A stretch of DNA of 64,000 nucleotides from Gammaproteobacteria bacterium (GCA_965277715.1 OZ255836.1:2368001-2432000), one strand, 5' to 3'; numbered from the stretch's first letter, positions 30,870 through 64,000 are shown. Translations and numbers: made by a program. The notes: generated by a model not told the origin, from the sequence alone.

Positions 30870-30888
30870 AAAAACACACCAAGCCTTA

Positions 30889-31125
30889 ATGCAAAATACT
30901 ACTGCAAAAGTCTTCAACAGCGGCAATAGTCAGGCTGTTCGCCTACCTAAGGCATTTCGGCTGGATACCGACGAGGTATTTATCCGCAAAGTGGGCAATC
31001 AATTGATCTTGACACCCAAAAAGGACTGTTGGCAGGGCTTTACCGATGGCTTTACTGGTTTCAGTGAAGATTTTTCCACCTATGCAGAATTACCCGAAGA
31101 TACGCCCCGGAGGCGTTTCGATTGA
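30889..31125 (+). CDS. vapB: VapB antitoxin (AbrB fold)
   Basis: TAKVFNSGNSQAVRLPKAFR. Confidence 0.92.
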   Translation: MQNTTAKVFNSGNSQAVRLPKAFRLDTDEVFIRKVGNQLILTPKKDCWQGFTDGFTGFSEDFSTYAELPEDTPRRRFD

Positions 31126-31532: not shown

Positions 31533-31607
31533 TCAAACGCTGCTCTACCGGATCAACCCCATAAGCTCCATTAGGCAACCAGGTCCGTACGGCACAATAA
31601 TCAGGTA

Positions 31608-38422: not shown

Positions 38423-39609
38423 TGGCATTCACCTGTCGCTTTACCCCTATCGATACCTGGTTTTTTAAAGAATCACGACCAATGGAAAGTATCGGCGACG
38501 CCGAGCTTAGCAGTGTTTTTCCGCCACCTGCGCGTACTTTGATCGGTGCAATTCGCGCCGCTATCGGTGCGCATAACGGTATCGACTGGCACGACAAAAA
38601 ACACAAACTTATCGACCAAATTGGCGACAACCTGTCATTTGGGCAAATTCGCCTGGAAGGGCCATGGGTCAACTATCCAGGTGACAACAAACGCCCGCCG
38701 CAACGTCTGTTCGCCGCACCTTACAACCTGCTCCGCCATACACCGGAGGGCTCTGTCTCCCGCCTGACTATCGGCACGCCAGTACACTGTGACCTTGGCA
38801 AGGTACGTTTGCCTCGCGCACCAAGCGGCGCTAAGCCCGTACGTGAACGCTGGATTACTCAAGAGGGATTGCAAACTGTATTGAATGGCAATACCCCGCG
38901 ATCAGAGGATCTTATCGACTGCACCCACCTCTATCACCAAGAATCACGGCTAGGCATAGCGCGTGACAATTACAAACGCACCGTCGAGCGCAACCTGCTC
39001 TACCAAACCCGTCATTTGCGCCTCAAGCCCAGTGTTTCGATTGATCTCGATATTAACGGCATCGATCAGTCCCTATTGCCTGACTCTGAAAACAGGCTGC
39101 TACGGCTGGGAGGAGAAGGCCGCATGGCAGCCTACGAATGCCCAAACACAACGAACGCACGCCTCAGCTCACCCACCCCACCTAACGATGCAAAAGGTGT
39201 AATCCTGGTGTTGCTCAGCAACGCTAATGCTCCTGTCGATGGCAATACGCCCACGCCACTACCCGGCTTCACATGCACCAAAGAAAACCACTGTACCGTT
39301 TGGCGCGGTTCGATAAACGGTGTGGAACTAACCCTGCATACCGCCGCTTGTGCCCACTCAGTACGCGAGGGTGGCTGGGATCTCGTCGAAAACGCCCCCC
39401 GGCCCGCAGAGAGTCTTATCCCTGCGGGCAGTGTGTTTTACTGCACTGTCGATAACGGCGATATCCCCTACGCTATAAAAAAACTGCATAACGCTCAATT
39501 ACTGGACAGTGATGCCTCTACTCCCACTGATGCCACCAACCTCACCCTGGGTCGCGGCTTACTGGCCGCTGGCATTTGGCCCGCTAACGAATTTACCGAA
39601 GGAGACTAA
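38422..39609 (+). CDS. cmr3: Cmr3
   Basis: PIDTWFF.E.RP, PPPART..GA, E.RLGI, LGGEGR, GGWD, PAGSV. Confidence 0.92.
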   Translation: MAFTCRFTPIDTWFFKESRPMESIGDAELSSVFPPPARTLIGAIRAAIGAHNGIDWHDKKHKLIDQIGDNLSFGQIRLEGPWVNYPGDNKRPPQRLFAAPYNLLRHTPEGSVSRLTIGTPVHCDLGKVRLPRAPSGAKPVRERWITQEGLQTVLNGNTPRSEDLIDCTHLYHQESRLGIARDNYKRTVERNLLYQTRHLRLKPSVSIDLDINGIDQSLLPDSENRLLRLGGEGRMAAYECPNTTNARLSSPTPPNDAKGVILVLLSNANAPVDGNTPTPLPGFTCTKENHCTVWRGSINGVELTLHTAACAHSVREGGWDLVENAPRPAESLIPAGSVFYCTVDNGDIPYAIKKLHNAQLLDSDASTPTDATNLTLGRGLLAAGIWPANEFTEGD

Positions 39610-39612
39610 CCC

Positions 39613-40620
39613 ATGTATCAAGCCCGCACCCTGCTGGGACTCCATGCACAAACCTCTATTCACGCCGGTAGCGGCTGGCAAACCGGCGCTATCGACCTGC
39701 CGATTCAACGCGAAGGCCACAATGGCTGGCCATGTGTCTTCGGCTCTTCGGTCAAGGGCGCACTGCGCAATCGCGCCGAACAAGAGAAGATGCAAAATTC
39801 ACTCGCAAATAACGAACTCACCCCTGAAAAAGCCCACCAACAGGCACGGGAAGCGCCAGATATAGTAGCGGTCTTTGGCCCACCGACTAATAGGGCATCC
39901 GACCACGCCGGTGCGCTTATCGTTAGCGATGCGCGCTTATTGTTGTTTCCGGTACGCTCGCTGACCTCACAGTTCAAATGGGTTACCTGCCCCAGCGCAT
40001 TACAGCGTTTTAAAGAGGATCACAAACGCCTATTCGGAAAAGACATCGAACTAAAAATACCAGAGTGTGAAGGGGAGGAACAAGCGATTGCGCACTGTAT
40101 AAACCCTTCCGATCAAACATCAACGAAAAAGGAAAAACTGTTTCTGGAAGAGTATTTATTTAATCTGGAATACACGGACATTGAAAAAACACTCATCGAA
40201 CAATTAGCCGCGCTTATGTGCCAACCAGAAGCTAAAAAGGCACTACGCAGGCAACTGGTTATCATCAGTGATGATAACTTCACCCATCTGGTAAACCATG
40301 CCACCCCGGTAAATGCGCATATCGCCATAGCGTCCGACACCAAAACGGCAAAGGATGGCGCACTGTGGTACGAGGAGACTCTGCCACCAGAAGCACTGCT
40401 TTATACCTGCCTAGCGGCCAGCAATGCCCGTACCCCAAAATCGCAAAACACAGAAAACACTGTAAGCCAGTCCGCCCAATGCATTATGAACACAGTCCTT
40501 GGCTGGTTTGGCGATGGTAAGCATTGGCTTCAAATTGGCGCTAATGAAACTGTTGGCATGGGGTGGTGTGCAGTGCAGCCATTACGAGACGTTGCAGACG
40601 ATACAAAGGAGGATGGCTAA
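39613..40620 (+). CDS. cmr4: Cmr4 (target RNA nuclease)
   Basis: SIHAGSG, IDLPIQRE (catalytic Asp), SSVKGALR, ALWYEE.LP, QIGANETVG.G. Confidence 0.94.
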   Translation: MYQARTLLGLHAQTSIHAGSGWQTGAIDLPIQREGHNGWPCVFGSSVKGALRNRAEQEKMQNSLANNELTPEKAHQQAREAPDIVAVFGPPTNRASDHAGALIVSDARLLLFPVRSLTSQFKWVTCPSALQRFKEDHKRLFGKDIELKIPECEGEEQAIAHCINPSDQTSTKKEKLFLEEYLFNLEYTDIEKTLIEQLAALMCQPEAKKALRRQLVIISDDNFTHLVNHATPVNAHIAIASDTKTAKDGALWYEETLPPEALLYTCLAASNARTPKSQNTENTVSQSAQCIMNTVLGWFGDGKHWLQIGANETVGMGWCAVQPLRDVADDTKEDG

Positions 40621-41029
40621 TATGCAAACCATTCAACAACGACGGGCAAAATACGCGCTAGACCAGGTGCAGAACGCCAAATCAAACAGTGGTATTGATA
40701 ACAAAGAATACAAAAGCTACGCCAATGCGCTACCGGCGATGATACACACTAACGGATTGGGACAAGCCACTGCATTTTACAAGTCAAAGGGAGGCACCCA
40801 TAAAGCACTCTATAATTTACTGTCTGGTTGGTTGTGTAAAGACGCACAAATTTACAGCGAATGCAGTGACCTGATGGAAGGCATTACCGGCGGTAATATG
40901 CGCGATTACCGCCTGGCTCAGGCCGAAGCAGTAGCTTTAATGGACTGGGCAAAGAAATTCGCCAACGCTTATATGAGCGAGCAAGAGCAAGAAGATAAAC
41001 AGGAGAGCGCAGATGTTGCCCCTGTATAG
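40613..41029 (+). CDS. cmr5: Cmr5 small subunit
   Basis: QRRAKYA, LPAMI..NGLGQ..AF, W.KKFA. Confidence 0.9.
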   Translation: MANMQTIQQRRAKYALDQVQNAKSNSGIDNKEYKSYANALPAMIHTNGLGQATAFYKSKGGTHKALYNLLSGWLCKDAQIYSECSDLMEGITGGNMRDYRLAQAEAVALMDWAKKFANAYMSEQEQEDKQESADVAPV

Positions 41030-42167
41030 CGAGGCGCAACCCCATGGGCAAGAGCTGGATCGCGATACTTCGGCGAATATGGGGCTGTGGTTTGATCGAT
41101 TCTTTAATGGCTATAACCACAACTTCAGTGAAATTAGCAAACCCACAGATCTCAAAGAGGTAAAAAAACAATGGATCCACACTCTGGATCGACATGCAGG
41201 CAAAGAAGAACAACTAGAGAGTTTTGCTAAAAACCAATGTCGCCTCATTCACTCACTGGGCGGTCTTTGTCAAGAATATCGAACCGAAGGGCGCTTCATT
41301 ACTGGCATGGGCAATTCGCACCCGATAGAAAATGGCCTAAGTTGGCACTTCACCCTGGGCGTGCCCTACCTGCCTGGTTCAGCCGTCAAAGGGTTAGTGC
41401 GAGCTTGGGTTGAGCAATGGCAAGATGAAATCGAAGAGAGTAAAAAACGGCAACTGCTCACATGGTTTGGCAGTGAAGATAAAGAACCAGGCCCTGAGCA
41501 AAACCAACAAGCCGGTGAAATTATTTTTTACGATGCGATTCCCATAAATCCGGTAAAACTGCATATCGACATAATGACGCCACATATGGGGAAATGGTAT
41601 GAAAAAGGCGGTGATATCACGAACGTTGATGATTCACCCGAAGCCGTCCCTGCCGATTGGCACGACCCGGTTCCGATTAAGTTTTTATCGATGGACAAAG
41701 GGGCGGAATTTTTATTTAGCATTGCACCAAGGCAACCTAAGAGTTGGTCGGTAGATTCGTTAACCGAAGTTATACAAGTGCTCAATATGGCATTGGAATG
41801 GCTCGGAGCTGGGGCGAAAACAGCCCTTGGCTATGGGCAAATGGTACAGACTGGGAAAAGCAGTATAGAAGACAAGGTCAAAAACGAAGATGAGAAAGAA
41901 CACACAAGAAAGTTATCGCCCGAAGGGTTGGTTTTACATGGCCTCAAAAAAGAACTGGAGCGAACAAAGAAATTAAACGATGCTAGAGCTAACACTTCGC
42001 TTCGCCAAAGGACATTGGATATTGCATCAAAAGCCAAGAGTTGGCCTCAAGTGCCAGAGAGACAAGAATTAGCCAATCTAATCGTGGAAGTATACGAATT
42101 CATAGGTTGGGGGAAGACTAAAAAAAAGAGAAAAGTACATTGCATAATTAAGGAGTTAAGAAATTAA
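41013..42167 (+). CDS. cmr6: Cmr6
   Basis: TGMGN.HP.ENG, GVPYLPGSAVKG, DIMTPH, DPVPI.F, GAGAKTA.GYG. Confidence 0.93.
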   Translation: MLPLYSEAQPHGQELDRDTSANMGLWFDRFFNGYNHNFSEISKPTDLKEVKKQWIHTLDRHAGKEEQLESFAKNQCRLIHSLGGLCQEYRTEGRFITGMGNSHPIENGLSWHFTLGVPYLPGSAVKGLVRAWVEQWQDEIEESKKRQLLTWFGSEDKEPGPEQNQQAGEIIFYDAIPINPVKLHIDIMTPHMGKWYEKGGDITNVDDSPEAVPADWHDPVPIKFLSMDKGAEFLFSIAPRQPKSWSVDSLTEVIQVLNMALEWLGAGAKTALGYGQMVQTGKSSIEDKVKNEDEKEHTRKLSPEGLVLHGLKKELERTKKLNDARANTSLRQRTLDIASKAKSWPQVPERQELANLIVEVYEFIGWGKTKKKRKVHCIIKELRN

Positions 42168-49708: not shown

Positions 49709-51589
49709 CTAATTATCCTCCAGCTCCCCCCAGCGGGAATACAATAACGGCAGCTGAGCCTCCAGCTCGCTATAACGCTGCTGCACCTTGGCCACTGCCT
49801 CCGCACCCTGTTTATAAAAATCCGCCTGGCTCATTGCCGATTCGAGCATGGACTGCTCATTTTCCAGTTGTTCAATTTTTTCCGGAAGTGCATCCAATTC
49901 ACATTGGTGTTTGTAGCTTCGTTTTTTAGTGGCGGTTTTTTGCTTTGATATTTGCTGTGGCCTTTGTCGTGTTTGGGCCGGTTTAGCCTGGGCAGCAGGT
50001 GCGGCTGTTTTTGCGGCTTGTTGGCGCAGCCAATCGTTATACCCACCCACATAATCCCCCACACAACCGCCACCTTCGAGCACCAGTGTGCTGGTAACAA
50101 TGTTATCGATAAATTCACGGTCGTGGCTAACCAACAACAATGTGCCCTGGTAGTTGAGCAGTTGTTCTTCAAGCAGTTCCAGGGTTTCGATGTCGAGGTC
50201 GTTGGTTGGCTCATCCATCACCAATACATTCGAGGACTGGGTAAATAATTTTGCCAATAACAGCCGGTTTCTCTCCCCACCCGATAACGCTTTAATCGGT
50301 GAGCGCGCCCGCTTTGGTGAGAACAGAAAATCTTGCATATAACTGATAATGTGTTTGGGCTTGCCGTTGATGGTGATGGTTTCAGCGCCACCACCCACAT
50401 TATCCTGCGCTGTTTGATTGGGGTCGAGCTGCGCACGCATTTGATCAAAGTAAGCAAATTCGATGTTGGTACCCAGCTTGACACTGCCCGCATCGGCATC
50501 CAGTTGACCCAATAACAGGTTAATCAGTGTGGTCTTGCCCGCACCGTTTGGCCCGACTATCCCCACTTTATCGCCGCGCAGGATGGTCGTACTAAAATTA
50601 TCGACCAGTGTTTTGCCCGCAATGGCGTAGCAGAGATCGTGTGTTTCGATCACGATTTTGCCGGATTTATTGCCCTGCTGGGCCGTAATAGTTGCAGTGC
50701 CGGTGCGGTCGCGGCGCGCGGCGCGCTGTGCACGCAGTTTTTTCAGGTCACGCACACGGCCTTCGTTGCGGGTGCGGCGCGCTTTAATGCCCTGGCGAAT
50801 CCAGACTTCTTCACGCGCCAGCTTTTTGTCAAACTCGGCCTGGTGTTTTTCTTCAGCGTCGAGTGCGGCTTGTTTTTTAACCAAGAAATTATCGTAATCA
50901 CCGGGCCAACTGGTGACCTTGCCCCGGTCGATTTCCAGAATGCGCGTCGCCAGACGGCGCAGAAAAGCGCGATCATGGGTAATAAACAGCAGAGTGCCAT
51001 TGAAGTCGTGGAGAAATTTCTCCAGCCAATCGATGGCGTCAATATCCAGGTGGTTGGTCGGCTCATCGAGTAACAAAATATCGGGCTGGCCGACCAGCGC
51101 ACGCGCCAACAGCGCACGGCGTTTTAAGCCACCAGAGAGCGTTTCAAAGAGAGTGTTACCATCCAGTTGCAGCCGGGAGAGCACCGTTTCGACCCGCTGT
51201 TCAGCCCCCCAGCCATCCAGCGCATCGATGCGTGATTGCAGCTTATCGAGCTTATCGAGCGATTCGCCGGCTTCGATAACCTGGTAATACGCTTCGAGTA
51301 AATCACCGATTTCACCCAGCGCCGACATGACGATGGCCTTGATTGTGCCGGTCAAATCAGTGGGTACTTCCTGTTCTAACTGCGCCACTTTCAAGCCCTG
51401 GCGCCGACTGATTTCGCCGCTATCTGCTGTGATCGTGCCATTGATCACTCGCAGCAAAGTCGATTTACCCTCGCCATTGCGACCCACCAAGCACACGCGC
51501 TCAGCACTGTCGAGATTTAAACTGACACCATCAAGCAGTGGCGGGCCACCAAAACCAATACCGATATTGTGCAAACGGATGAGTGACAT
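49709..51589 (-). CDS. uup: ABC-F ATPase Uup
   Basis: Two ABC domains, WIRQGIKARRTRNEGRVR linker, C-terminal coiled coil. Confidence 0.95.
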   Translation of the reverse strand: MSLIRLHNIGIGFGGPPLLDGVSLNLDSAERVCLVGRNGEGKSTLLRVINGTITADSGEISRRQGLKVAQLEQEVPTDLTGTIKAIVMSALGEIGDLLEAYYQVIEAGESLDKLDKLQSRIDALDGWGAEQRVETVLSRLQLDGNTLFETLSGGLKRRALLARALVGQPDILLLDEPTNHLDIDAIDWLEKFLHDFNGTLLFITHDRAFLRRLATRILEIDRGKVTSWPGDYDNFLVKKQAALDAEEKHQAEFDKKLAREEVWIRQGIKARRTRNEGRVRDLKKLRAQRAARRDRTGTATITAQQGNKSGKIVIETHDLCYAIAGKTLVDNFSTTILRGDKVGIVGPNGAGKTTLINLLLGQLDADAGSVKLGTNIEFAYFDQMRAQLDPNQTAQDNVGGGAETITINGKPKHIISYMQDFLFSPKRARSPIKALSGGERNRLLLAKLFTQSSNVLVMDEPTNDLDIETLELLEEQLLNYQGTLLLVSHDREFIDNIVTSTLVLEGGGCVGDYVGGYNDWLRQQAAKTAAPAAQAKPAQTRQRPQQISKQKTATKKRSYKHQCELDALPEKIEQLENEQSMLESAMSQADFYKQGAEAVAKVQQRYSELEAQLPLLYSRWGELEDN

Positions 51590-51810
51590 TATCTAACCGT
51601 GGGTAAAAAGGGGCGCTACTGTAGCGGTTGGTATGGCTATTTGTCCACATCACAAATAACGGTTCTAGAACTCATGTATTGACTTGTGTGCAAGTCAATA
51701 CATGAGGCCTGGCAAATAACATCTTGGGCAAATAACCGCCTGGGCTTGCAAAACCTGATTTGCATCACCAATTAGAAGCATCACCGCACAATAACTCTGG
51801 AGTCACTATC

Positions 51811-52509
51811 GTGATCACCCTGCGAAAAAGCAATGAGCGTGGCCAGGCCGACCACGGCTGGCTGCAGGCACAACACACATTTTCATTTTCCGGCTACCAG
51901 GATCCGGCGCATACACACTTCCGGCACTTGCGCGTTATCAACGAAGACCGCATCGCTCCTGGCCAGGGTTTTCCGATGCACTCGCACGAAGACATGGAAA
52001 TTATTACCTACATCATCGACGGCGCCTTGGCACACAAAGACGATATGGGCAATGGAGAAGTATTGCGCCCCGGTGAGATCCAACGAATGAGCGCGGGCAC
52101 GGGTATTAGCCACAGCGAATTCAACCCATCGCAAAAAGATCCTACGCACTTATTACAAATGTGGGTTTTTACCGAAGAAAAAGGCATTGCACCGAGTTAC
52201 CAACAGCAGTCTTTTATCGACCGCCACCAACCCAATACGCTGTGCCTGATCGCTAAAAAAGGCGGACAGGACGGTGTAGTACACATCAATCAGGATATCG
52301 CACTGTACTGCGCTGTGCTCGAAGCGGGTCACACGATTGAACACCCTGTTATGGTAGATAGGCATAGTTGGGTGCAAATAGTGCGAGGGTCGTTAGTACT
52401 GAACGGTGTCACCTTGCAGGCAGGGGATGGTGCGGCGGTGAGTGAAGAACCATTGTTGTCATTTAGCGCTGGTGATGACAGTGAGTTTTTGTTGTTTGAT
52501 TTGGCTTAA
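51811..52509 (+). CDS. Pirin family protein (YhhW-like)
   Basis: HGWL...HTFSF, LRVINED, HSH.DMEI, HSEFN. Confidence 0.93.
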   Translation: MITLRKSNERGQADHGWLQAQHTFSFSGYQDPAHTHFRHLRVINEDRIAPGQGFPMHSHEDMEIITYIIDGALAHKDDMGNGEVLRPGEIQRMSAGTGISHSEFNPSQKDPTHLLQMWVFTEEKGIAPSYQQQSFIDRHQPNTLCLIAKKGGQDGVVHINQDIALYCAVLEAGHTIEHPVMVDRHSWVQIVRGSLVLNGVTLQAGDGAAVSEEPLLSFSAGDDSEFLLFDLA

Positions 52510-52701
52510 TGCCATGTGATATCACATATCATTAGCTTATTAAGATCGTATTTACCATCAACTCACCTCCCTTTCCATTCAGATCAAAAAAACAACAGCT
52601 TGTTATTACCATTCTATAAGCCAATAAAAAAACCTCCGGTATACGAGGCTTTAACAAAAAATACTTTGTTTATACTAAATAACTAGCCTGACCCCTTTTC
52701 T
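52227..52701 (+). repeat. 475-bp direct repeat, copy 1
   Basis: Apparently identical to 56867-57341. Confidence 0.92.
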
Positions 52702-52869
52702 CCGCAGTTGTTGAAAAAGGCGTATGTTGATGCCCGTTATTCTGAGCACTATGAAATTACGGCGGAAGAGCTTGAGTGGTTGGCCGAGCGCGTGGTGTGC
52801 TTGCAGGGGATGGTGGAAAGGCTTTGTTTGAGGAAGATTGAGAGTCTCAGCAGTGACCATTTAATTTAG
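52702..52869 (+). pseudogene. 3' fragment of an MNT-HEPN gene
   Basis: QLLKKAYVDARYSEHYEITAEELEWLAERV resembles the C-terminus of 60320..61177. Confidence 0.8.
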
Positions 52870-52909
52870 GTAAAAGAATTCGTATAGTGGCCAGGTAGTG
52901 TAGTGGTCA

Positions 52910-53560
52910 TATATGGACCCGCAGTTAAATTCAACAATTTTTTAATCGTTCAGAGCAGACACAGTAAATAAGGTTAGCAGTCATATATCCGGCTTCTCAA
53001 TAGGACGGATTGTATTTGTTTATCCGTCCAGAGCCATAATGGGAACCGTGCTCAGACACCTCATCAAGCAATCGGTCTGTGAAGACCATGACCCCTCCAG
53101 GTTCTGTCTGAGCCGGTTTAACCTGTTATACCCTTTACTGCTCTTTCGCTACCTCGTGGTAAGAAATCTTCAACGACGCTATTAAGCCGTTTTATGCACG
53201 TAAGTTGTATTATTAGCCGCTACCGCCCAGCTAATTCTGGCGAGCTTATTGGCCAATGCCACCGCCGCCACACAATGGCCCCGACGTGCTTTGACACGAC
53301 AGGCCCAACGACTTAGCCCATTATCGTGTTTAGGCATTCGACTTAATGCCGCTTGCGCCCCCTGTATCAACAAAGTGCGCACGTGTTCGCCCCCGCGTTT
53401 ACTGATACCTTTTAGTTGCGTTTTGCCCCCCGAATTATATTGACGAGGAACGAGACCCAAAAAGGCGGAAAACTCACACCCATTTTTATAAAAACCCGGA
53501 TCGCCCATTGCTGTAAACAAGGCAGTGGCGACCAGAGGCCCTACACCCGGCAGTGTTTTT
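52910..53560 (-). mobile_element. Truncated IS110 (IS1111-like) element: transposase C-terminus 53182-53560 plus 3' non-coding end
   Basis: LPGVGP..A, FSAFLGLVPRQ.SGGK, GISKRG, ALANK.ARI.WA; end motif GGGTCCATATA. Confidence 0.85.
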
Positions 53561-53561
53561 A

Positions 53562-53738
53562 ATAGTACTCATTGCCAGGAAATATACGCTGTCTTCCCCT
53601 ACCTCGGTTCATTACGTGGTAGTAGGCGTTTTCATACTCTATGCGTAGAGATCTTGGCATTTAAGGAGTATAGCAGCACACCAAAATCATGCAATAGTAT
53701 ACTTGACCCTTTTGCATATAGTATACTTGACCCCTTTA
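53562..53738 (-). mobile_element. 5' fragment of the Y1/RAYT-like transposase plus doubled terminal motif
   Basis: MPRSLRIEYENAYYHVMNRG from ATG 53660; ATAGTATACTTGACCC occurs twice. Confidence 0.85.
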
Positions 53739-53787
53739 TTTTTTTATTTTTTATCTCCTTTATTTCTTCTGACAACCCCAACGAGGC

Positions 53788-54474
53788 CTATGGGGCTTGC
53801 ACATTCAATTGAATAACACTGGCAACAAACGACTCCAGCTTTTTTCTATCATTGCCGTAAACAGTCATCGTGTACGTGTCACCGCCTATGTTAATTTTTA
53901 ACTCGATTGAAAGCTCCCCGTCACTAAACTTAAAAACCACATAGTAGTAACCATCAGCAAAATTATGGGCCAATAAAGGTGTTTTTAAGCTGCGAGAAGG
54001 GCCTTTGGCAGGAAACAATACTTCCAATGAGATTGTATGAAAAACGACAAGATCAAGCTTGCCTTGCTCATCTAGTGAGCTACAATCAAAACCAGAATAG
54101 CCATCCAAACGCCTAATAAAATAAACGATAGAGTCCCAATAAGTAAACGGCGTCTTATTGAGATCAAGCCCCAAATACTCAGCTAAATCTACTATGCTTT
54201 TTTCTTCAAAGTCAGATTTTATCTTTGCGATCCTTAACCCTGTATAAATGCCATCCTGTTTCGGATACTTGAGCATCCCGTAATTTTTTACTTCCGCGCG
54301 CTCATCAAGTATAAAGCCTTGCGAAAATACGCCATCTAACTCCAAAATGACTTCCGGGTAAGACACCTGATCAATAGCAATTAATAGCTTTTGACAGTCT
54401 GATTCATTGAAATTCCCCGAAGCCACACAATAGGACGAAATTAACAGCAAAAAAACAGAGATAATGTACTTCAT
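53788..54474 (-). CDS. Secreted hypothetical protein (immunity-like cargo)
   Basis: Signal peptide MKYIISVFLLLISSYCVA; AT-rich; TAATG-coupled to an upstream gene remnant. Confidence 0.65.
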   Translation of the reverse strand: MKYIISVFLLLISSYCVASGNFNESDCQKLLIAIDQVSYPEVILELDGVFSQGFILDERAEVKNYGMLKYPKQDGIYTGLRIAKIKSDFEEKSIVDLAEYLGLDLNKTPFTYWDSIVYFIRRLDGYSGFDCSSLDEQGKLDLVVFHTISLEVLFPAKGPSRSLKTPLLAHNFADGYYYVVFKFSDGELSIELKINIGGDTYTMTVYGNDRKKLESFVASVIQLNVQAP

Positions 54475-54583
54475 TAGATGGGCCACTCTCCAAACAACGT
54501 ATAACTCTGCGGGTAATCTGCCCTGATCATATTCAACCGCCCCGCAGTGACTGTCGCACCACGGACGAGCGAATTCCATAGCA

Positions 54584-55390
54584 ATAAAGGGGTAAAGTAT
54601 CATATGAGTTTTTTAAGTAATTTTTGCAACGTTAAATCACCTGCCAATTGAGTTTCAAAGCGCCTAATAGCTATTGATACACTACCGTATCGCTTGAAAC
54701 CGAAGACTTCGGCAATATCTACCAACTTATGCCCACCCTCTTCCCGACACAGGTACATACATAAATCTCTCGCTACTTTCGCTTTCAACCCTCCCCTTGA
54801 TGGTCGGAGGATATCTTCACGCTCAATCTTCAACGATTTCGACACCCGAATAATCCATTCATCTACCGTAGGTCTAAACTGCTGTAAGTCACTACGGTTA
54901 ACTGCACTATCTATAGTTTCACGTTGCTCGTAGGCCCAACTGCGGAAATCCTCACTGCCCAAATAAGGCATTTGATTTCCCCGTCCGTAGAATCGCCTGA
55001 TTTCTTCATCAATGCCTTGCTCCACATAAGCCCGGTATCGTTGCGCAAAATACCGCTGATGAGGCACACCGAGCTGAGCCTGGATATCTCCCTGGTAAAG
55101 CCACTCCTGTGATGAACGACCATTTGCATAATCGTTGTAACTGGACCAGGGGTAATCCGCCAAATTCTTTACTAACCTAGCTTCCAGCGGGTTTCGGTGA
55201 ATATAGCGAGAGAGTTGAAGCTGATAACTATCTTCTTCAATGCAGATCGCTTTGTAACGCCTCTGAAATAACGGTGCATCGGTACGTTACGTGGTAGTAG
55301 GCGTTTTCATACTCTATGCGTAGAGGTCTTGGCATTTAAGGAGTATAGCAGTACACCAAAATTATTCAATAGTATACTTGACCCCTTTAT
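54584..55390 (-). mobile_element. Y1/RAYT-like element with a 224-bp internal deletion, bounded by 17-bp inverted repeats
   Basis: Near-identical to 55848-56807 except for the deletion at a TACGT microhomology that removes the HUH motif. Confidence 0.9.
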
Positions 55391-55418
55391 CTCTTCTTTA
55401 CCCCCATACCCCTTATCA

Positions 55419-55673
55419 TCACCTAATAAATGTATTTGAAAACCCTGTAAATAGCGCCTTACAAACCAGACTCACCGATATTACGAAACTCAATATATCG
55501 CTTTCTATATATCCGTTTTCAATTAATAGAAACGGTAAACCAAAAGCAATAAGAATAAACACATCAAATATTAATCTGATATGTGCGCTTGTAATTCTTC
55601 TAATATACTTTTTTGAAAAAATTTCTAACAACAATAAAATTATTGTATAGGCAATAAAAACTAATGGAGTCAT
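55419..55673 (-). CDS. Small AT-rich membrane protein
   Basis: 84 aa with ~3 hydrophobic segments, between two element copies. Confidence 0.45.
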   Translation of the reverse strand: MTPLVFIAYTIILLLLEIFSKKYIRRITSAHIRLIFDVFILIAFGLPFLLIENGYIESDILSFVISVSLVCKALFTGFSNTFIR

Positions 55674-55847
55674 ACTTAATTTTCAATATCTATAAACATA
55701 TAAATTTCATTTTTATGAAAACACTTTATTAAAAAATACACAAATAAATATAGTTACATTTCTCTTGTTTTTCATCGTTATATCTAACAGAATTATTCTA
55801 TTTATTAATCACACTAAATAAACAGTAAAGGGTAAAGAGATCAAGTA

Positions 55848-56807
55848 TCATATGAATTTTTTAAGTAATTTTTGCAACGTTAAATCACCTGCCAATTGAG
55901 TTTCAAAGTGCCTAATAGCTGTTGATACACTACCGTATCGCTTGAAACCGAAGACTTCGGCAATATCTACCAACTTATGCCCACCCTCTTCCCGACACAG
56001 GTACATACATAAATCTCTCGCTACTTTCGCTTTCAACCCTCCCCTTGACGGTCGGAGGATATCTTCACGCTCAATCTTCAACGATTTCGACACCCGAATA
56101 ATCCATTCATCTACCGTAGGTCTAAACTGCTGTAAGTCACTACGGTTAACTGCACTATCTATAGTTTCGCGTTGCTCGTAGGCCCAACTGCGGAAATCCT
56201 CACTACCCAAATAAGGCATTTGATTTCCCCGTCCGTAGAATCGCCTGATTTCTTCATCAATGCCTTGCTCCACATAAACCCGGTATCGTTGCGCAAAATA
56301 CCGCTGATGAGGCACACCGAGCTGAGCCTGGATATCTCCCTGGTAAAGCCACTCCTGTGATGAACGACCATTTGCATAGTCGTTGTAGCTGGACCAAGGG
56401 TAATCCGCCAAATTCTTTACTAACCTAGCTTCCAGCGGGTTTCGGTGAATATAGCAAGAGAGTTGAAGCTGATAACTATCTGCTTCAACGCAGATCGCTT
56501 TGTAACGCCCCCGAAATAACGGCCCATCGGTACGTTTCTGTTTATTGTACCGCTGTGTATAAAGCCCATTGATGTGCCGCATACACCGTCCCAGATTACC
56601 TTCCGGTGTCTTCACCAATAAGTGATAGTGGTTGCTCATCAAGCAATAGCAAAGAACCTGTAGGCCAAAACGTCTATGAGCCTGCGCAAGGAGTTCAAGA
56701 AAAAGCGAGTAGTACTCATCGTCAGGAAATATACGCTGTCTTCCCCTACCTCGGTTCATTACGTGGTAGTAGGCATTTTCGTACTCTATGCGTAGCGGTC
56801 TTGGCAT
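55848..56807 (-). mobile_element. Intact Y1 (HUH) transposase, RAYT/TnpA-REP-like, with C-terminal HTH
   Basis: YYHVMNRG, YCLMSNHYHLL, LFRGRY, YIHRNP (catalytic Tyr), YPWSSY; DnaA-C-like HTH tail. Confidence 0.92.
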
Positions 56808-56866
56808 TTAAGGAGTATAGCAGTACACCAAAATTATGCAATAGTATACTTGACCCCTTTATCCTT

Positions 56867-57341
56867 CCAACCCAATACGCTGTGCCTGATCGCTAAAAAA
56901 GGCGGACAGGACGGTGTAGTACACATCAATCAGGATATCGCACTGTACTGCGCTGTGCTCGAAGCGGGTCACACGATTGAACACCCTGTTATGGTAGATA
57001 GGCATAGTTGGGTGCAAATAGTGCGAGGGTCGTTAGTACTGAACGGTGTCACCTTGCAGGCAGGGGATGGTGCGGCGGTGAGTGAAGAACCATTGTTGTC
57101 ATTTAGCGCTGGTGATGACAGTGAGTTTTTGTTGTTTGATTTGGCTTAATGCCATGTGATATCACATATCATTAGCTTATTAAGATCGTATTTACCATCA
57201 ACTCACCTCCCTTTCCATTCAGATCAAAAAAACAACAGCTTGTTATTACCATTCTATAAGCCAATAAAAAAACCTCCGGTATACGAGGCTTTAACAAAAA
57301 ATACTTTGTTTATACTAAATAACTAGCCTGACCCCTTTTCT
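56867..57341 (+). repeat. 475-bp direct repeat, copy 2 (pirin 3' fragment plus downstream DNA)
   Basis: Matches 52227-52701. Confidence 0.92.
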
Positions 57342-57363
57342 TTTCTCTTTTCCCTCGTAAAAG

Positions 57364-57440
57364 TTATAACGCCCCAATAACCGGCGCGCGCTTTTTGCGC
57401 GTCCGGCGTCGCAGGCGCGTAGTTAATTGACTTGTTATGC
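57364..57440 (-). other. attC site 1
   Basis: (-) GCATAAC...GTTATAA with internal imperfect hairpin. Confidence 0.85.
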
Positions 57441-57441
57441 A

Positions 57442-57828
57442 TTAGTGCCGGACTACCGCGTCGTTTTTAAGGAAGTCACACCAAGCCTTTAAAGACCATT
57501 TGGAAAATATATTATTTTCTTTGAGATCATTCTCGGCACTTAGCTTTAACATATAACCCTCAATTGAGATAAGGTTGTTACGTACAGCCGACTCAAAGTC
57601 TATGCCGACATTTTGAGCAAAGAACTCATCTGATTTGTCTGCGTTATTTAGTAAGAACTTCAGATCGTCTGCGGCTTTAATTGCTGCCACTTTAGTAAAG
57701 GCTTCTTCTGGAATAGGCCAGTGGCCCTCTCCAGAGCTTTTTACTGGATCACATAAATTTTCAGCAGTTGCTGAACCTGAAATTAGTGCAAGTAGGATCA
57801 AATATTTCTTCATAGCTTTAAGATGCAT
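57442..57828 (-). CDS. Cassette gene: secreted hypothetical protein
   Basis: Signal peptide MKKYLILLALISGSATA; spans attC2 to attC1. Confidence 0.75.
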   Translation of the reverse strand: MHLKAMKKYLILLALISGSATAENLCDPVKSSGEGHWPIPEEAFTKVAAIKAADDLKFLLNNADKSDEFFAQNVGIDFESAVRNNLISIEGYMLKLSAENDLKENNIFSKWSLKAWCDFLKNDAVVRH

Positions 57829-57896
57829 AACACCGCGCTCGGCGGCAAATTTGGAGCGCAGCGGAAAATTTGTCCGGCAGCAGCACTTTGTTAGGA
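57825..57896 (-). other. attC site 2
   Basis: (-) TCCTAAC...GTTATGC; near-identical to attC4. Confidence 0.9.
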
Positions 57897-58486
57897 GCTG
57901 ACTTCAAGAGCATGCCTAAGTAAGCTTTGCCAGTTACCGAAAATGTACCCATCATAAGCAGAATAAAAACTTCTCTCTATTGCTTGGTGCCCTTCATTTG
58001 ACAAGGCAGCATTAAATCTGTTGAGCTTAACTTTTTTTGCTGCATCGAAGCAGTGGTCATGAAATGCATCATCCAAGTAACCTGATCGTCGGGCATGATA
58101 CGCACCAATCCAATACCATGATTTCTAGCGTAAGAAATTGCTCCGCTTTGGAATGAGTTCTTAGTAGCAATAACGCCTTTTACATTTTTTCCCGCAATTT
58201 GGTCTAGCTTCGCTTTAAACTCCTCAACATCATCTACTGGAACTTTGTGCCCGTAATTCTTGCATTCACATACCCAAAGCAAGGAGTGATTTTTAGCGCC
58301 AGGAGGCCACACTTCAATAGATATATCGACAATGATGTCTTTCTCGCGATCTTTGGAATAGTAGCCCTTCTTCTTGAATATTTTTCCAGAAGCAGCATCA
58401 ATTCCTAAGCGCCCTTTGCTCAATTCTTCTTTGAGGAGATCAAACGTCCTATCTTCCAGCGCATCTCCTTTTGCCACGGTATTCAT
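57891..58486 (-). pseudogene. Cassette gene: Mrr-like restriction endonuclease, probably frameshifted near 58010-58040
   Basis: KG..LE, D..IE, ECKNY...V..DDVEEF, FQSGA; second frame ends exactly in the attC R'' TAAC. Confidence 0.72.
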
Positions 58487-58491
58487 GTGCC

Positions 58492-58551
58492 TCCTAACGC
58501 TGGCCTAAATCGCCGAGCGGTAGCTTGGTCGATTTGAGGCCCTGGTTATGT
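58492..58551 (-). other. attC site 3
   Basis: (-) ACATAAC...GTTAGGA, 60 bp. Confidence 0.85.
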
Positions 58552-58552
58552 T

Positions 58553-58867
58553 TCATTTGTCTAATGCCTTTCTGATAGCCTGTAGTTTTTGTTGACTAGC
58601 TTTTAAACTTTCATAAAGATGCCAAACCAAATCATCGACTTCTTCAATGATGGCTTGACGTTCATGTTTTTTCCCTGTGCTTGCTAGGGTAGACAGGCGA
58701 TTGGCTATAGTTCGTTTTGCGCCAAGTGCACTTTTGCCGCCACCATCATGGACTGCCCAATAAATTTCCCAGTAATCATATTCAGGGTAGTCCTGTTCCA
58801 TAATCTTTGATATCTGCTTGCCTTCCTGCGCGAGTGTTTGTATTCCAGTTCTATCTTTTTTATTCAT
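58553..58867 (-). CDS. Cassette gene: hypothetical helical protein
   Basis: 104 aa with GAGG RBS, between attC4 and attC3. Confidence 0.75.
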   Translation of the reverse strand: MNKKDRTGIQTLAQEGKQISKIMEQDYPEYDYWEIYWAVHDGGGKSALGAKRTIANRLSTLASTGKKHERQAIIEEVDDLVWHLYESLKASQQKLQAIRKALDK

Positions 58868-58909
58868 TGCTGATTCCTCTTAAAGTGAAATTTTCAGTAC
58901 TACTTGAGA

Positions 58910-58981
58910 ACATAACGCCGTGCTCTGCGGCAAATTTGGAGCGCAGCGGAAAATTTGTCCGGCAGCAGCGCCTCGTTAACT
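58910..58981 (-). other. attC site 4
   Basis: (-) AGTTAAC...GTTATGT. Confidence 0.9.
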
Positions 58982-58985
58982 GTGA

Positions 58986-59613
58986 TCACATCGAGTCAAT
59001 TTTAGCGATGATTTCTTTATGTTTTTGAATCTCTTCATTTTGCCACTTACTATTTCAATGCCAGTCGCTAGGCCTTGGATTTTTATGTTCACAGCTTCTG
59101 CAATACTGATTTTCGAAACCGAATTCTTCAATAGGCGACTTGTAAATATTATCCAAATCCCAGCCTCCCGTAGCATGCCCCATTTTTATGCAATGCACCC
59201 ACTTCATTGCTGCGGATGGTAATCCTAGCATTCGAGCAGGGATTCCTTGCGCTCTAGAAGGAAATACTATTAGATTCTCACAATCCTTGATGACTCTCTC
59301 AGGGTTATAATCTTTAAGCCCTTGTTTTATTATCTGGCCCATTTCATCTTTAGGGTCGTCGTAGTTGAATCCTAAAGCTTTTGCCCTTTCACGAAAAAAC
59401 TTTAATTCATCTTCTGGGGTTGCATCTTCATTGCTTTTCTTAATATCAGCTTTTATCTTAGCAATCGTATCAGTAACACTAGTCCTTAGCAAGTTCAATT
59501 TCACCATCTATACCGTAATCCTCTTGATCTTCTTGTGATCTAAATATCCAGTGATCAGGTAAATGGAATTCGAGTATCCTGCCTGCTTTACGTCCAATTT
59601 CTTTCGCGTTCAT
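58986..59613 (-). pseudogene. Cassette gene: DUF4365-like nuclease remnant (frame break plus nonsense codon)
   Basis: ATG 59613 gives ...FRSQEDQEDYGIDGEIELAKD*; other frame runs to TGA 59055 and continues 22 codons to TGA 58986. Confidence 0.65.
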
Positions 59614-59632
59614 TGATTCTCCATTCGTAGGC

Positions 59633-59713
59633 AGTTAACGTCGCACTAAAGGGCGCGCGTTAGCGCGTCCCAGCCCACGTTTTTTGTGGGCGATTTTGAG
59701 CGCCTTGTTAGCA
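59633..59713 (-). other. attC site 5
   Basis: (-) TGCTAAC...GTTAACT. Confidence 0.85.
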
Positions 59714-59722
59714 CTATTGCTT

Positions 59723-60238
59723 TTATTCATCCCATGCATTTTTTAACTCTATATCTTGGCTCTTGCTGCGAATTTGAAAATGAAGGTATGCAAACGGGCC
59801 ATACGAACCTTGACACCGAAGCACGTAGTAAGTATCTGCTGATTCTAACGAAAACTCGCCGGGAGCGCCAAGCTGACTATTGGAAACGGGTGAACTCTTA
59901 TAGTTAGGAAATGCTTGACTGATTAGCAGCGATGCCTTCTCTTTCAGGCTCTCACATTCTTCCCAATTTTTAACTGCCTTTTCTGCTGTTACTATTACCA
60001 CGTGACCTGTTGCATTTAAATAGGCAATTGAATACTCAGAAAAAATAGATGAAATATTACCATGATTTGGCACTCGGAATTGAGTTGTAGGCCTACCTTT
60101 ATCTTTGTTTTGCATCCCTTGAGGGTGGGAAAATCTTTCGCCTACCGGAATTTTGAGTAGTGACGGATACTCAGCGGCAGATAAAACAAGAGGAACAAGC
60201 ATTAATACTAAGGTGAGAATTTTCTTCATTTCTTTCAT
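59723..60238 (-). CDS. Cassette gene: secreted hypothetical protein
   Basis: Signal peptide MKKILTLVLMLVPLVLSA. Confidence 0.75.
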   Translation of the reverse strand: MKEMKKILTLVLMLVPLVLSAAEYPSLLKIPVGERFSHPQGMQNKDKGRPTTQFRVPNHGNISSIFSEYSIAYLNATGHVVIVTAEKAVKNWEECESLKEKASLLISQAFPNYKSSPVSNSQLGAPGEFSLESADTYYVLRCQGSYGPFAYLHFQIRSKSQDIELKNAWDE

Positions 60239-60240
60239 CG

Positions 60241-60304
60241 TGCTAACGTTTGCTTGTGCGGCGCGCAGCAACGCGGAGCGTCCCACATGAAACTATTGTT
60301 ATGC
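60241..60304 (-). other. attC site 6
   Basis: (-) GCATAAC...GTTAGCA. Confidence 0.82.
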
Positions 60305-60319
60305 CTATTTGCTTCATAA

Positions 60320-61177
60320 CTATATAAAGCTTGCAATTTTTTCTTTGCACAGATTTTCTGTTAAAACTTGTAATTTTTGTACCCGCTCTGCTAACCATTT
60401 TAGCTCCTCTTTTGTAATTATGTAGCTGGGTTTATAGCGAGCATCAACATATGCCTTGCGTAAAAGTTTAAAGCGGTTTTTTTCTTCTTCTGTACTTTGT
60501 GGAAATACAGTAAGAAACTGTGGTTCAATGCTGCTTACACGTTGACCCAATTTTACTAAATCATGTGTGCTAGGTTTATAACGGGTAAAAACTAAAAGAA
60601 TTGTGCCGTAAAGGCGCTCTGTGACTTGGTGGAGTAAAAATTCAGCATTATTATAGTTACCCCTATCAAGTGGTGCGTTAAAATCGAGAAAATATTATTT
60701 AGCACTTATAAACCAATATTCAAAATCCTCTTCTGCCAGTTTTTTTCGCTCACTTGGCGATATTTCCTTTGGCTCGACTAACTCAAATGCTCCTGAGTTA
60801 TACAACACAATTCCTTCACGCTTGATATCAATATAAAAGTACTGGCTCTTTCTTAAGCGTCGGTTAATAAATTGGATATCTTCCGCGATCAGGCTGATTG
60901 GAGTTCGGTGGATGGTTTTTATCAAACGCTGATTGAGTTGATTATTTTGCTCAATTTTACTAGCTTCTTTCCGGGTTTCTGTAACAACCAATAGATCAAA
61001 GTCACTTTGATAACGGTAGTGCAGGGTTTCCAGGTCTATATCCTCCACCCAATCACCACGCGCATAACTACCAAACAAAATGAGCATATCGGGATTGATC
61101 TCTTCACGGATAATTTCCACAGCTCGCTGTAGTTCCTGCTGTTTCTGTTCCGGCAGGTGGTCAAGTGAAGTTTTCAT
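60320..61177 (-). pseudogene. Cassette gene: fused nucleotidyltransferase-HEPN protein with in-frame TAA at 60695
   Basis: LFGSYARG, SDFDLLVV; same frame resumes FLLHQVTER, THDL, KAYVDARY. Confidence 0.85.
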
Positions 61178-61228
61178 AGGTGAATAATATCAGTTTCCTT
61201 TCAACAGCACAGACTTAAAGTTTGGGAA

Positions 61229-61299
61229 GCATACGCCTCGCATCAGCGGCTGACAAAGCGCGTAGCGGTTTGGCAGTCCGTTGCATGCGCTTGTTATGT
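61229..61299 (-). other. attC site 7 (R' degenerate)
   Basis: (-) ACATAAC...hairpin...GTATGC (one T missing). Confidence 0.72.
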
Positions 61300-61483
61300 G
61301 TATTTCTGGATCGCCCATTTGAATGCTTCAACACTTGCACTTTGAATTTTTTCATTTCTTTCTTTCGCAGAAATCCAATTAGAAATACCATTTACTGAAA
61401 ACCCATTGCTTTCACCTTGGGCCAGCTCACGAATAGCTTGATAAACTCTATGTTGAATTTCATTTGCGTCCCTAAGCAAAAAG
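61294..61483 (-). pseudogene. 3' fragment of a cassette gene
   Basis: Open frame ending in the attC7 TAAC; 5' end cut at the GACCCCTTTTC motif. Confidence 0.6.
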
Positions 61484-61547
61484 GAAAAGGGGTCAATCGT
61501 ATTTAGTATTTTTCAAACGATTGTAAACCTGCTCAAACACGCCCTTC

Positions 61548-62210
61548 GTAAGCGCCCTTAAATCAGCCTCTATTCCAAGGTAATGTCCAAAACGACATGC
61601 CAAGGTAGCAAGGCCTCTCTCTTTTCAAGAGTATCGGCACTGCCGATATGATTAAGGGCGTGCAGTATGTACGCATAGGGTTCAAGCCCATTAGCTTTGG
61701 CCGTTTCGATCAATGAGTAACATGTGGCACTGGCATGGGCGCCACGGGTTGAATCGGCAAACAACCAGGCTTTTCTACCCACGGCAAAAGGCCTAATGGC
61801 ATTTTCAGCCAGCACGTTGCTGATGTGTAACCGTCCATCATCACAGTAGCCTGTGAGGGTATGCCATTGATTCAGTGCATAGTCCATGGCGTTACGAGTA
61901 AGGGACTTTTTAGCCACCTGGGTAATATGCTTATCCAGCCATTGTTTGAAGTCTTCCAACACCGGTTGGCTAAGTGCTTGGCGAAACCTTTGTTTTTCTG
62001 CGGGTTCAAGCGCTTGTGAGGTAATGCCAGAAATGGCACAGCCATTGGCCAGCGTAAAACACAAACCCGGATCACCCCTTTGCCTATCAGCCACCATCAC
62101 TTGGGTAAAGCCTGCTACAGGCATGTTACTCTGCACTGCTTGAATAGTTTTACGCGAACATTTACGGCTCCAATAGTAAAACTGCTTCAAGTGGATGCCG
62201 TTATCCTTAA
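61548..62210 (-). mobile_element. IS66-family remnant (tnpA fragment fused to the tnpC C-terminus)
   Basis: End GTAAGCG at 61548; QFYYW.RK (TnpA); ISN.LAENAIRP.A.GRK.WLF, YSLIETAK.NG (TnpC). Confidence 0.88.
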
Positions 62211-62440
62211 ACTCCATCGACATGCTGCATGATGCGACTGAGGTTAACATCCGGTGTTTCCAGCAGTAGGTGGTAGTGGTTGCCCGTTAGGCAGTAAACT
62301 TCGCCATGAAAAATCGCCTTACGCTCCCGACCACGGTTCATTATGTGGTAGAAGGCGTTTTCGTATTCTATGCGCTGAGGCCTTGGCATCGGTTGGTATT
62401 GGTACAATCTACACTAAATAACTAGCCTGCCCCCTTTTCC
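62207..62440 (-). mobile_element. Divergent Y1/RAYT-like 5' remnant with terminal motif
   Basis: MPRPQRIEYENAFYHIMNRG...YCLTGNHYHLL from ATG 62389; ACTAAATAACTAGCCTGCCCCCTTTTC end. Confidence 0.82.
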
Positions 62441-62642
62441 GCTATTCCAGCAACGACTAACCGTAACTTCGGCTTGTCATAAATGCTTTCCTTGAGCATG
62501 ATACTCCGTAGCTTCGACCAATACTCATCGTTGAGCAATAATCGGGGCATGGCAAACTCGTATTTGTTGTTTTTATCACATCCAATGATACGAGTTTGCC
62601 TTTTGTTTCAAAAGCTTATAGCCAAACGTCAACAGGCCCTAG
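62441..62642 (-). mobile_element. IS5-family 5' remnant
   Basis: End AGGGCCTGTTGACGTTT; MPRLLLNDEYWSKL...IYDKPKLR. Confidence 0.7.
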
Positions 62643-62649
62643 CAAAATA

Positions 62650-62910
62650 ATAAATTAAGGTTAAAGGCAATTTCTTCGCCTGAAAAATAGCCCCTGCTGT
62701 AATGAGTGTTTGATGGTGGCAACGATGGCATTGTTGGAGCTTGCGCTCGGTCAGTTGATAGCCCTTATTGTGACCACAAACTGGACAGATAAACCCATTG
62801 GGCCAGCGCCACTAGTAGAGGGCTAAAAAACACTGTTCCTCTGTACCGTAGGCTTGGATAAAATCACTTAAACTCAGATCTGCTTGGGATTGTACTGTAT
62901 TGCGTGATGC
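62650..62910 (-). mobile_element. IS1595-family transposase remnant (zinc ribbon)
   Basis: LSLSDF...YGTEEQC...*WRWPNGFICPVCG...QCHRCHHQT.ITAG.IF. Confidence 0.8.
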
Positions 62911-63331
62911 GTGATATGAGAAATACCAATAAATTCAAATGGTTGTATTTTATCCTGGCATAGACTTATATTTGCTTCCTTTATTTTATTCGTCTTTCGA
63001 TTAATCGGCGAGTAATACGATAAATACATCTGCTTGGTTGGCACGCTCTACGCAGGTAGGTGTTTTTTTTGAAAAAAAACAACGACAAGCATAAAAATCT
63101 GCTATAAGATTTTTAACAAAATAATAACGCTTAAAAGGCAAAACCACTCAGCACCCAATACCGCGATTGCTTCATTTAAGCATATTGTGCGTCGTAAATA
63201 TCCAGACAAACCCGCTAGGTGTGATGTATAGACGTTGTCTTTAAGCGATAAAAATCACCAAAGCTGAAATAAATTGTATGGTAGGTACTGTAAAAAAGCG
63301 CACCCTATTGCGCTGCAATGGTTTAATAGAC

Positions 63332-63538
63332 CTAAGAGCCTGTCGGGCTCAGGATGGCTTTACTGCGGAAAAGCAGACTTGGCCTTTTTTCGTGCTCCCT
63401 TTTTTGCACACCATTTCATCAAAGAGAACTACTGTCGTCAGGTATATCCCTATACCTAACCCTTTCAGGGCTAATGCGGAAGAACATTCCATACGTTCTT
63501 TTTGTCCTCATGAACAGCTAAACCCGTCAGGTTCTTAG
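63332..63538. repeat. MITE-like family C (~207 bp)
   Basis: CTAAGAGCCTGTCGGG...CCCGTCAGGTTCTTAG inverted ends; related single ends near 33098-33131 and 35022-35048. Confidence 0.6.
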
Positions 63539-63579
63539 CTTCTCCCTGCCCACCTCACCCCACTTATCATAATACGCTA

Positions 63580-64000
63580 ATGACAATGCTAAAAAATTTA
63601 ACCAGCGGAGAGTGGGCTGTTTTAAGGGATCGGTATGTGGTTGGGCGCAATCGGACGGATGTCCATCTGTATATCGGCGATAACGATATTTCCCGTCATC
63701 ATGCCTATCTATTTTGGCAAGATAGCACTTGGCTTTTGCGTGATGTGAGCCGCAACGGTGTCTGGGTAAATAACCAACGGATCAACCCGGTGCAAGCGGT
63801 GGAGCTCAATCCACGTGACGAAATCCGCTTCGGCCAACAAAACGTCAATACCTGGGCACTGCTGGACACAAACGCACCACGGAGCGCTTTGGTGCCGATA
63901 TCACAGGATTGTGCCGTGATCACATTAGATGCATACAATGCCATACCAGCCGGGAATTCGACCCTGGAGATCATACAAGAGTCTTCAAACCGTTGGCTCC
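63580..64000 (+). CDS. FHA-domain protein (partial, runs off window)
   Basis: VVGR, ISRHHA, LRDVSRNGVWVN, EIRFG. Confidence 0.88.
   Translation, partial: MTMLKNLTSGEWAVLRDRYVVGRNRTDVHLYIGDNDISRHHAYLFWQDSTWLLRDVSRNGVWVNNQRINPVQAVELNPRDEIRFGQQNVNTWALLDTNAPRSALVPISQDCAVITLDAYNAIPAGNSTLEIIQESSNRWL

Follow-up and report, generated by a model that had tools for sequence, protein, structure and literature searches.

How does a short run of a bacterial genome come to hold several copies of one transposase gene in alternation with the remains of unrelated genes, and what is it about the ends of such an element that so often places them exactly where a gene has been cut? The question is raised by a 64,000-nucleotide stretch from a sponge-associated gammaproteobacterium (Gammaproteobacteria bacterium, GCA_965277715.1 OZ255836.1:2368001-2432000; this whole stretch is referred to as the window, and coordinates are counted from its first letter), near one end of which a gene for a Y1-type HUH transposase recurs between inverted short repeats. 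A preliminary description proposed a capture or shuffling system, in which the enzyme joins its terminal motif to unrelated DNA, and could not match the architecture to any described system. Judged from its gene and its ends, the element is of an already described kind, the TIRtron, whose gene is termed TIRYT: the architecture is that set out by Di Nocera and colleagues in 2013 and placed in subclass 2.1 by Quentin and colleagues in 2018. The region is a cluster of these insertion-sequence-like units of about 1.03 kb, belonging to two subfamilies (type 1, represented by copies A, B and C, and type 2, of which there are three solo ends and a single 5' fragment; Table 1), and its mosaic structure was probably produced by repeated insertions that were followed by deletion and recombination.

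The gene of copy A encodes a protein that matches Y1_Tnp (PF01797, E 8e-12) and, in its C-terminal part, Bac_DnaA_C (PF08299, 31.9 bits where the cut-off is 31.5), with the latter domain also matching the DnaA domain IV chains 2hcb and 1l8q at E 0.002. The residues H60-Y61-H62 together with Y119, N123 and P124 (Y---NP) are invariant across 19 aligned sequences. With the NCBIfam RAYT equivalog NF047646 (REP_Tyr_transpos) the protein reaches 72.1 bits, which is under the cut-off of 80, and it is because this cut-off is missed that the gene is filed as a TIRYT rather than a RAYT. Copies A and B agree at 97.2% over 704 nucleotides (nt), the deletion in B having removed the HUH codons, and for copy C the identity with A is 94% across 151 nt (blastn); such values point to recent duplication, and the three near-identical type-1 copies are packed within 3.3 kb. 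The preliminary description had counted four copies of the gene, and three of these are indeed copies of one type, while the fragment at 62210-62389 belongs to the second subfamily, with 46% protein identity to copy A over the first 82 residues (60 residues of the fragment and a 22-residue gap) and no blastn match to copy A. The deletion in copy B is flanked by two short similar stretches (ACGTAAYG.ACCGA.G), as replication slippage would give.

The element is bounded by terminal inverted repeats (TIRs) of the pattern (A)AAGGGGTCAAGT...ACTTGACCCCTT(T), the GGGG of copy A standing 50 nt before the ATG and the right end overlapping the stop codon. The type-1 box, GGGGTCAA, fits seven of the eight positions of the TIR consensus GGGGWSAS, and the type-2 box, GGGGTCAG, fits the consensus. 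Around copy B, the 17-bp inverted repeat that had been described at 54584-54600 and 55374-55390 holds at 16 of 17 positions. Exact matches to GACCCCTTT number six in the 64 kb (at 52690, 53729, 55380, 56852 and 57330 on the plus strand and at 61486 on the minus strand) where 0.46 would be expected, a count that none of 100 shuffles reaches. With one mismatch allowed, TGACCCCTTTW gives eight matches against an expectation of 2.24 (one of 100 shuffles reaches eight), and all eight fall in 52689-62438, in keeping with the recurrence reported earlier, leaving the other 54 kb or so without any. Three of the motif sites are solo ends of the second type, 27-30 nt in length, and the terminal 22 nt of copy C are present in tandem (53718-53739, a 22/22 match). 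The domain matches and the alignment of the ends thus bear out the original picture of a HUH gene of Y1/RAYT-like type that ends in a C-terminal helix-turn-helix (HTH) and is bounded by inverted GGGGTCAAG and CTTGACCCC ends. Across 51000-64000, Rfam returned no match at E up to 0.1.

The same anatomy recurs among relatives of the protein. These are numerous, with 7582 of 8000 scored candidates (that is, more than 7500) being counted as relatives, and among the best 120 of them 112 carry both domains and eight PF01797 only, according to precomputed Pfam assignments. The flanks were surveyed at 80 loci, from which eight partial matches were dropped, and 70 of the remaining 72 hold a full-length gene. 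GGGGTCA occurs within 100 nt upstream of the gene in 54 of 67 testable loci, most often 51-52 nt before the ATG, and 45 of 67 have TGACCCC at the stop codon, its TGA mostly being the stop codon itself; the two are found together in 35 of 64 loci, and the background for these motifs is 40 matches in 272 kb. The presence of the motif in homologue flanks, which had been named as a check on the first proposal, is thereby established. As the ends hug the gene, 51 nt before it and 0-28 nt after it, the homologous elements have no room for cargo. Two pairs of copies, one in genome G001 (99.4% identical) and one in G004 (96.6%), show a likeness that spans precisely (A)AAAGGGG... to ...CCCCTTTT, the DNA outside being unrelated. 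In five other genomes, with 4-12 motif matches each, about half of the matches form inverted pairs roughly 1 kb apart, and many homologues sit on contigs no longer than about 1 kb. Just outside the element a tandem repetition of its terminal 12-27 nt occurs at the left end in eight loci and at the right end in seven, making 14 distinct loci of 70 (for instance L002, L011, L044, L062, L071 and L073); the corresponding site in the window is 53694-53739. Among 72,556 plasmid records 24 match the protein, and two of them cover at least 80% of its length. A metagenome scan with the 19-nt terminus of the type-2 left end (LE-2) gave one match, in a high-GC contig of an unrelated organism, and no strain-level empty site. 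In that contig (L081) two tandem copies of the 19-nt end directly adjoin a Y1 transposase gene whose 5' part is missing.

How does such an element compare with the better-known users of HUH chemistry? Its Y1_Tnp fold, with the HUH motif and one tyrosine, is also that of the IS200/IS605 family (IS608, ISDra2), whose members have no terminal inverted repeats, possess subterminal hairpins and in many cases carry tnpB, whereas the element described here has TIRs, is without tnpB and has an added HTH. HUH chemistry is likewise shared with the IS91, ISCR and Helitron elements, in which missed termination moves flanking DNA; their enzymes, however, are of two-tyrosine or Rep-helicase types with unlike ends, and nothing in the window indicates read-through. 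The RAYT or TnpA_REP genes of E. coli and Pseudomonas (PMC3333891, PMC3116915) resemble the present one in being class-2 Y1 HUH genes that lie inside inverted short repeats, repeats that are also found without a gene, but the ends here are tagged with GGGG and not GTAG, the palindrome is weak or missing, there is an extra HTH and the gene is multi-copy. With TnpA_REP subclasses 2.1.2 and 2.3 the protein has in common the Y---NP motif, its length of 319 residues and the Bac_DnaA_C-like HTH. In those parts of their survey that concern these groups, Quentin, Siguier, Chandler and Fichant (2018, PMC6006769) place TIRYTs in subclass 2.1, give Bac_DnaA_C, HTH_23 or HTH_28 as the types of C-terminal HTH of this subclass, with Bac_DnaA_C in branch 2.1.2, map group 1 of the RAYTs of Bertels 2017 onto subclass 2.1 and describe the related subclass 2.3 as multi-copy in Chromatiales and Alteromonadales; the low similarity that the same parts of the survey note among the copies within one genome differs from the 94-97% identity observed here. 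As outlined in the relevant portion of Di Nocera, De Gregorio and Rocco (2013, BMC Genomics 14:522, PMC3733652), TIRtrons have repeats of consensus GGGGWSAS whose spacing from the gene is fixed, these repeats occur solo, as dimers and in clusters, and several TIRYT types may share one genome. The window reproduces this arrangement, with a RAYT-like Y1 gene between such inverted repeats at fixed distance and with both solo and clustered ends; it differs in that its copies are nested in a cassette array and its solo ends lie exactly at cut genes.

By what route, then, might the element move? Both the TnpA of IS200/IS605 and the TnpA_REP of E. coli work on single strands, which they cleave and rejoin by way of a 5'-phosphotyrosine, and by analogy the HUH-tyrosine site would nick a single strand at the outer boundaries of both ends and then re-join it, with the HTH probably reading the GGGGTCAAG box. 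In the relatives a short GTCAAG-N3-8-CTTGAC palindrome stands next to the GGGG, and stems of at least four pairs are found at 46 of 56 left ends as against 334 of 1120 shuffles, though the folding energies are weak (z -1.1 to -2.4). The ends in the window are not more stably folded than shuffles (z +0.1 to +1.3) and a hairpin reading of the ends was, with those weak energies, set aside; it is because the window ends lack this signal that recognition of the GGGGTCAAG box by sequence, perhaps by the DnaA-like HTH, appears more likely than a hairpin guide. Elements of this kind would have inserted repeatedly at purine-rich spots of an integrase-less cassette array beside the pirin gene, cutting genes precisely at the element termini, and later ordinary events, such as internal deletions, recombination among the repeated copies and the activity of IS110, IS66 and IS5 elements, would have stripped away matching halves so as to leave solo ends. 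On this account the gathering of cargo would have no place in the cycle of the elements.

Insertion plus deletion and recombination accounts for most of the pattern. For instance, copy B has cassette DNA on either side, lying as it does between a cassette open reading frame (ORF) and its attC, and because of this it looks like a simple insertion; what had been taken for a gene tail at 54583 looks, by its fold as judged by eye, more like an attC-type palindrome than a cut gene. At the junctions between the IS110 fragment and copy C (53562/3) and between the IS66 fragment and the type-2 fragment (62207/8) an internal point of one element is joined to an internal point of another, with no motif at either place; contigs from public runs carry on as IS110 past 53563 and as IS66 past 62207, and these two joints are plain deletions. 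The same set of contigs (from runs X1, X3, X4 and X6) reveals other arrangements. A contig from X6, at a depth of 191, joins 56862 to 54583 and one from X4 joins 53747 to 54583, in each case with a left end abutting a right end; in X1 two copies of the element lie 728 nt apart, and in both X1 and X3 the solo end beside pirin is doubled in tandem. The 94-97% identity of the copies, the abutted left and right ends in the contigs and the X1 pair may be taken as signs of recent activity. Contig cover is missing from X1 and X3 over 54017-55309 and from X4 over 57465-60912, gaps that carry no proof, and two further X4 joints, one linking 57342 with 61481 (side 25) and the other 57343 with 62334 (side 33), were given no weight, their sides being short and a derivation from other copies of the repeats being possible.

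Several observations weigh against this account. One is the degenerate right end of copy A. Another is a 475-bp exact duplicate, which takes in the end of the pirin gene; it stops precisely at a solo end, its start lies 4 nt away from copy A's left end, and ordinary steps would explain it only through a history of several stages. The HEPN gene, pirin, a cassette gene of a 109-residue family and the IS5 element are all cut 0-4 nt from a motif terminus, which is the case for four of the six cut-gene junctions; the earlier statement that these four genes abut the outer end of the motif is correct in every instance. Homologous recombination across solo ends of 30 nt is inefficient. The lack of a hairpin signal at the window's ends makes an IS608-type, hairpin-guided mechanism doubtful here, and the survey of the wider family, where it treats TIRYT-type elements, records no formal evidence of their autonomous mobility (PMC6006769).

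It is from the duplicate and the cut genes that the foremost alternative draws, namely that the transposase joins ends belonging to different copies, including solo ends and those of the sister subfamily, with the result that DNA beside or between ends is moved, duplicated or swapped. Cleavage would then take place at the outer boundary of any GGGG-tagged end, and re-joining across such ends would amount to transduction or end exchange. We consider this unlikely, and in its general form, whereby a TIRYT enzyme would act on any pair of GGGG-tagged ends to duplicate or swap DNA outside a copy, with the duplicate, the four cut genes and the tandem termini as its footprints, we hold it to be similarly improbable. 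The exact limits of the duplicate and the cutting of four genes within 4 nt of a terminus are both in its favour. Tandem termini, which copy C and 14 of the 70 homologue loci display and which recur at the solo end of runs X1 and X3, point the same way, as does the doubled 19-mer against the 5'-cut Y1 gene of L081. Contigs from X1 and X3 run unbroken through 52227, where that from X6 ends 30 nt into the repeat, a pattern hinting that the duplicate is absent from X1 and X3 and is specific to the strain of the window. However, a cross-over anywhere inside the 475-bp segment would yield the same product as an enzyme-made joint, homologues have no cargo between their ends, and the two internal junctions lie away from any motif. 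Nor was a second clear case of a flank duplicate found among 111 loci: a 152-bp exact duplicate beside two TIRYT copies in G001 was entertained as such a case and rejected, the segment being one end of an ISKra4-like gene that is itself multi-copy (NF033572, E 4.5e-51, under the curated cut-off and with no Pfam match). With the close-set ends of the homologues, the motif-free junctions and this explanation of the G001 duplicate, there is no solid sign of the capture or shuffling system first proposed for the region. If the alternative were nonetheless true, the locus would supply the first evidence both of TIRtron activity and of host genes being reshuffled by it. At two loci (L082:2481-3890 and L007:5960-6948) an ISKra4-like insertion sequence adjoins a TIRYT right end, the joint being the same in both, and at L092 (genome G001) a 152-bp piece of it lies against a GGGG box; other insertion sequences may land at TIRYT ends.

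A quite different explanation would make the gene a domesticated, immobile host gene of RAYT type, its copies having arisen by segmental duplication and the motifs being REP-like host sequences. Class-2 Y1 genes are, in the portions of two surveys given to them (PMC6006769; PMC5581495), usually low in copy number with diverged copies, and the motif is rare in each of the five other genomes, but the copies in the window share sharp boundaries at the repeats with unrelated flanks, the similarity of the G001 and G004 pairs likewise starts and ends at the repeats, and the many homologues on contigs of about 1 kb also tell against it, so that we regard it as very improbable. That the mosaic is an assembly artefact is scarcely credible, for although the region is rich in repeats and one path of the X6 graph connects copy A's left end with a right end, the contig from which the protein derives is 4.29 Mb long and the X6 contigs match at 100% identity, one of those listed (53680-54636) bridging two junctions.

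The setting of these insertions and deletions is a cassette array flanked by fragments of other insertion sequences (Table 1). Six of the attC-type sites of the array were located by regular expression and one by eye; its genes include Mrr_cat and an MNT and HEPN combination (Pfam), and no integrase gene is present among the window ORFs scanned. The HEPN partner of the MNT gene (60320-60700) consists only of a 76-residue ORF whose upstream part seems interrupted, suggesting a possible pseudogene. The cassette gene cut at the next motif corresponds, over 61297-61476, to residues 50-109 of the 109-residue family, the cut falling at residue 50. The ORF at 53788-54474 has no Pfam or NCBIfam match, and the domain scans found no family for the 84-residue ORF between copies B and A. 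The remainder of the window is ordinary chromosome (def, fmt, dprA, topA, hemF) with a type III-B Cmr module, the latter being a CRISPR-Cas effector module at 35166-42167 with Cmr2/Cas10, Cmr3 and several RAMP proteins. Toxin-antitoxin-type modules occupy 30688-32819 (a MazE-like/PIN pair and a gene for a HipA-like kinase), and at 7169-8088 a gene-transfer-agent-type holin with three transmembrane segments stands beside a GH108 lysozyme that has a peptidoglycan-binding domain. The interval separating the ABC-F gene from pirin contains, at 51672-51704, a palindrome of two perfectly matched 14-nt arms around a 4-nt loop; contigs from X1, X3 and X4 diverge on both of its flanks, in several variants, so that it is a repeat dispersed among these sponge-associated genomes.

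Table 1. Coordinates of the TIRtron copies, solo ends, duplicated segment and adjoining genes in the window.
Feature	Coordinates	Strand	Remarks
TIRYT type-1 copy A	55833-56862	-	Intact 319-residue gene at 55848-56807; left end intact
TIRYT type-1 copy B	54584-55390	-	Both ends present (16/17); internal deletion of about 223 bp
TIRYT type-1 copy C (5' fragment)	53563-53739	-	Left end and about 98 nt of gene
TIRYT type-2 5' fragment	62208-62439	-	Gene start 62389; LE-2 at 62390-62439
Solo LE-2, 30 nt	52671-52700	-	Outer end abuts HEPN fragment; repeat family D6
Solo LE-2, 30 nt	57311-57340		Closes copy 2 of 475-bp repeat
Solo LE-2-like variant end	61484-61510	+	Opposite orientation; outer end faces cassette array
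475-bp exact direct repeat, copy 1	52227-52701	.	Pirin 3' end, terminator-like hairpin, solo type-2 end; repeat family D1
475-bp exact direct repeat, copy 2	56867-57341	.	Starts 4 nt after left end of copy A
Pirin gene, intact	51760-52509	+	Pirin, Pirin_C_2 and Cupin_2 domains; 3' 283 bp inside duplicated segment
HEPN gene 3' fragment, cut at motif	52702-52869	+	62% identity over 47 residues to HEPN ORF 60320-60550
IS110-family transposase 3' fragment	53182-53562	-	Transposase_20, E 1e-14; joined internally to copy C
Cassette-like ORF, signal-peptide-like start	53788-54474	-	attC-type palindrome upstream, about 54495-54580 (fold)
84-residue membrane-like ORF between copies B and A	55419-55673	-	From ORF list
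Seven-cassette array	57363-61290	-	attC-type site ends each cassette (nnnTAAC...GTTAnnn, 54-81 nt)
First cassette gene, cut at next motif	61297-61479	-	92% identity to residues 50-109 of P0121
IS66-family transposase 3' fragment	61570-62207	-	DDE_Tnp_IS66 and IS66_C domains
IS5-family 5' fragment, cut at LE-2	62440-62650	-	blastn to IS5-like ISPa67-family genes, 74-83% identity

What the locus contributes is a further member of the TIRtrons and some detail on the anatomy of their ends, and not a new system. The family is very large, and mobility has not been demonstrated for any TIRtron. With sharp-ended, near-identical copies, solo ends and differences between strains all brought together at one place, this locus of a sponge-associated bacterium offers a convenient natural test case for the movement of DNA by such elements.

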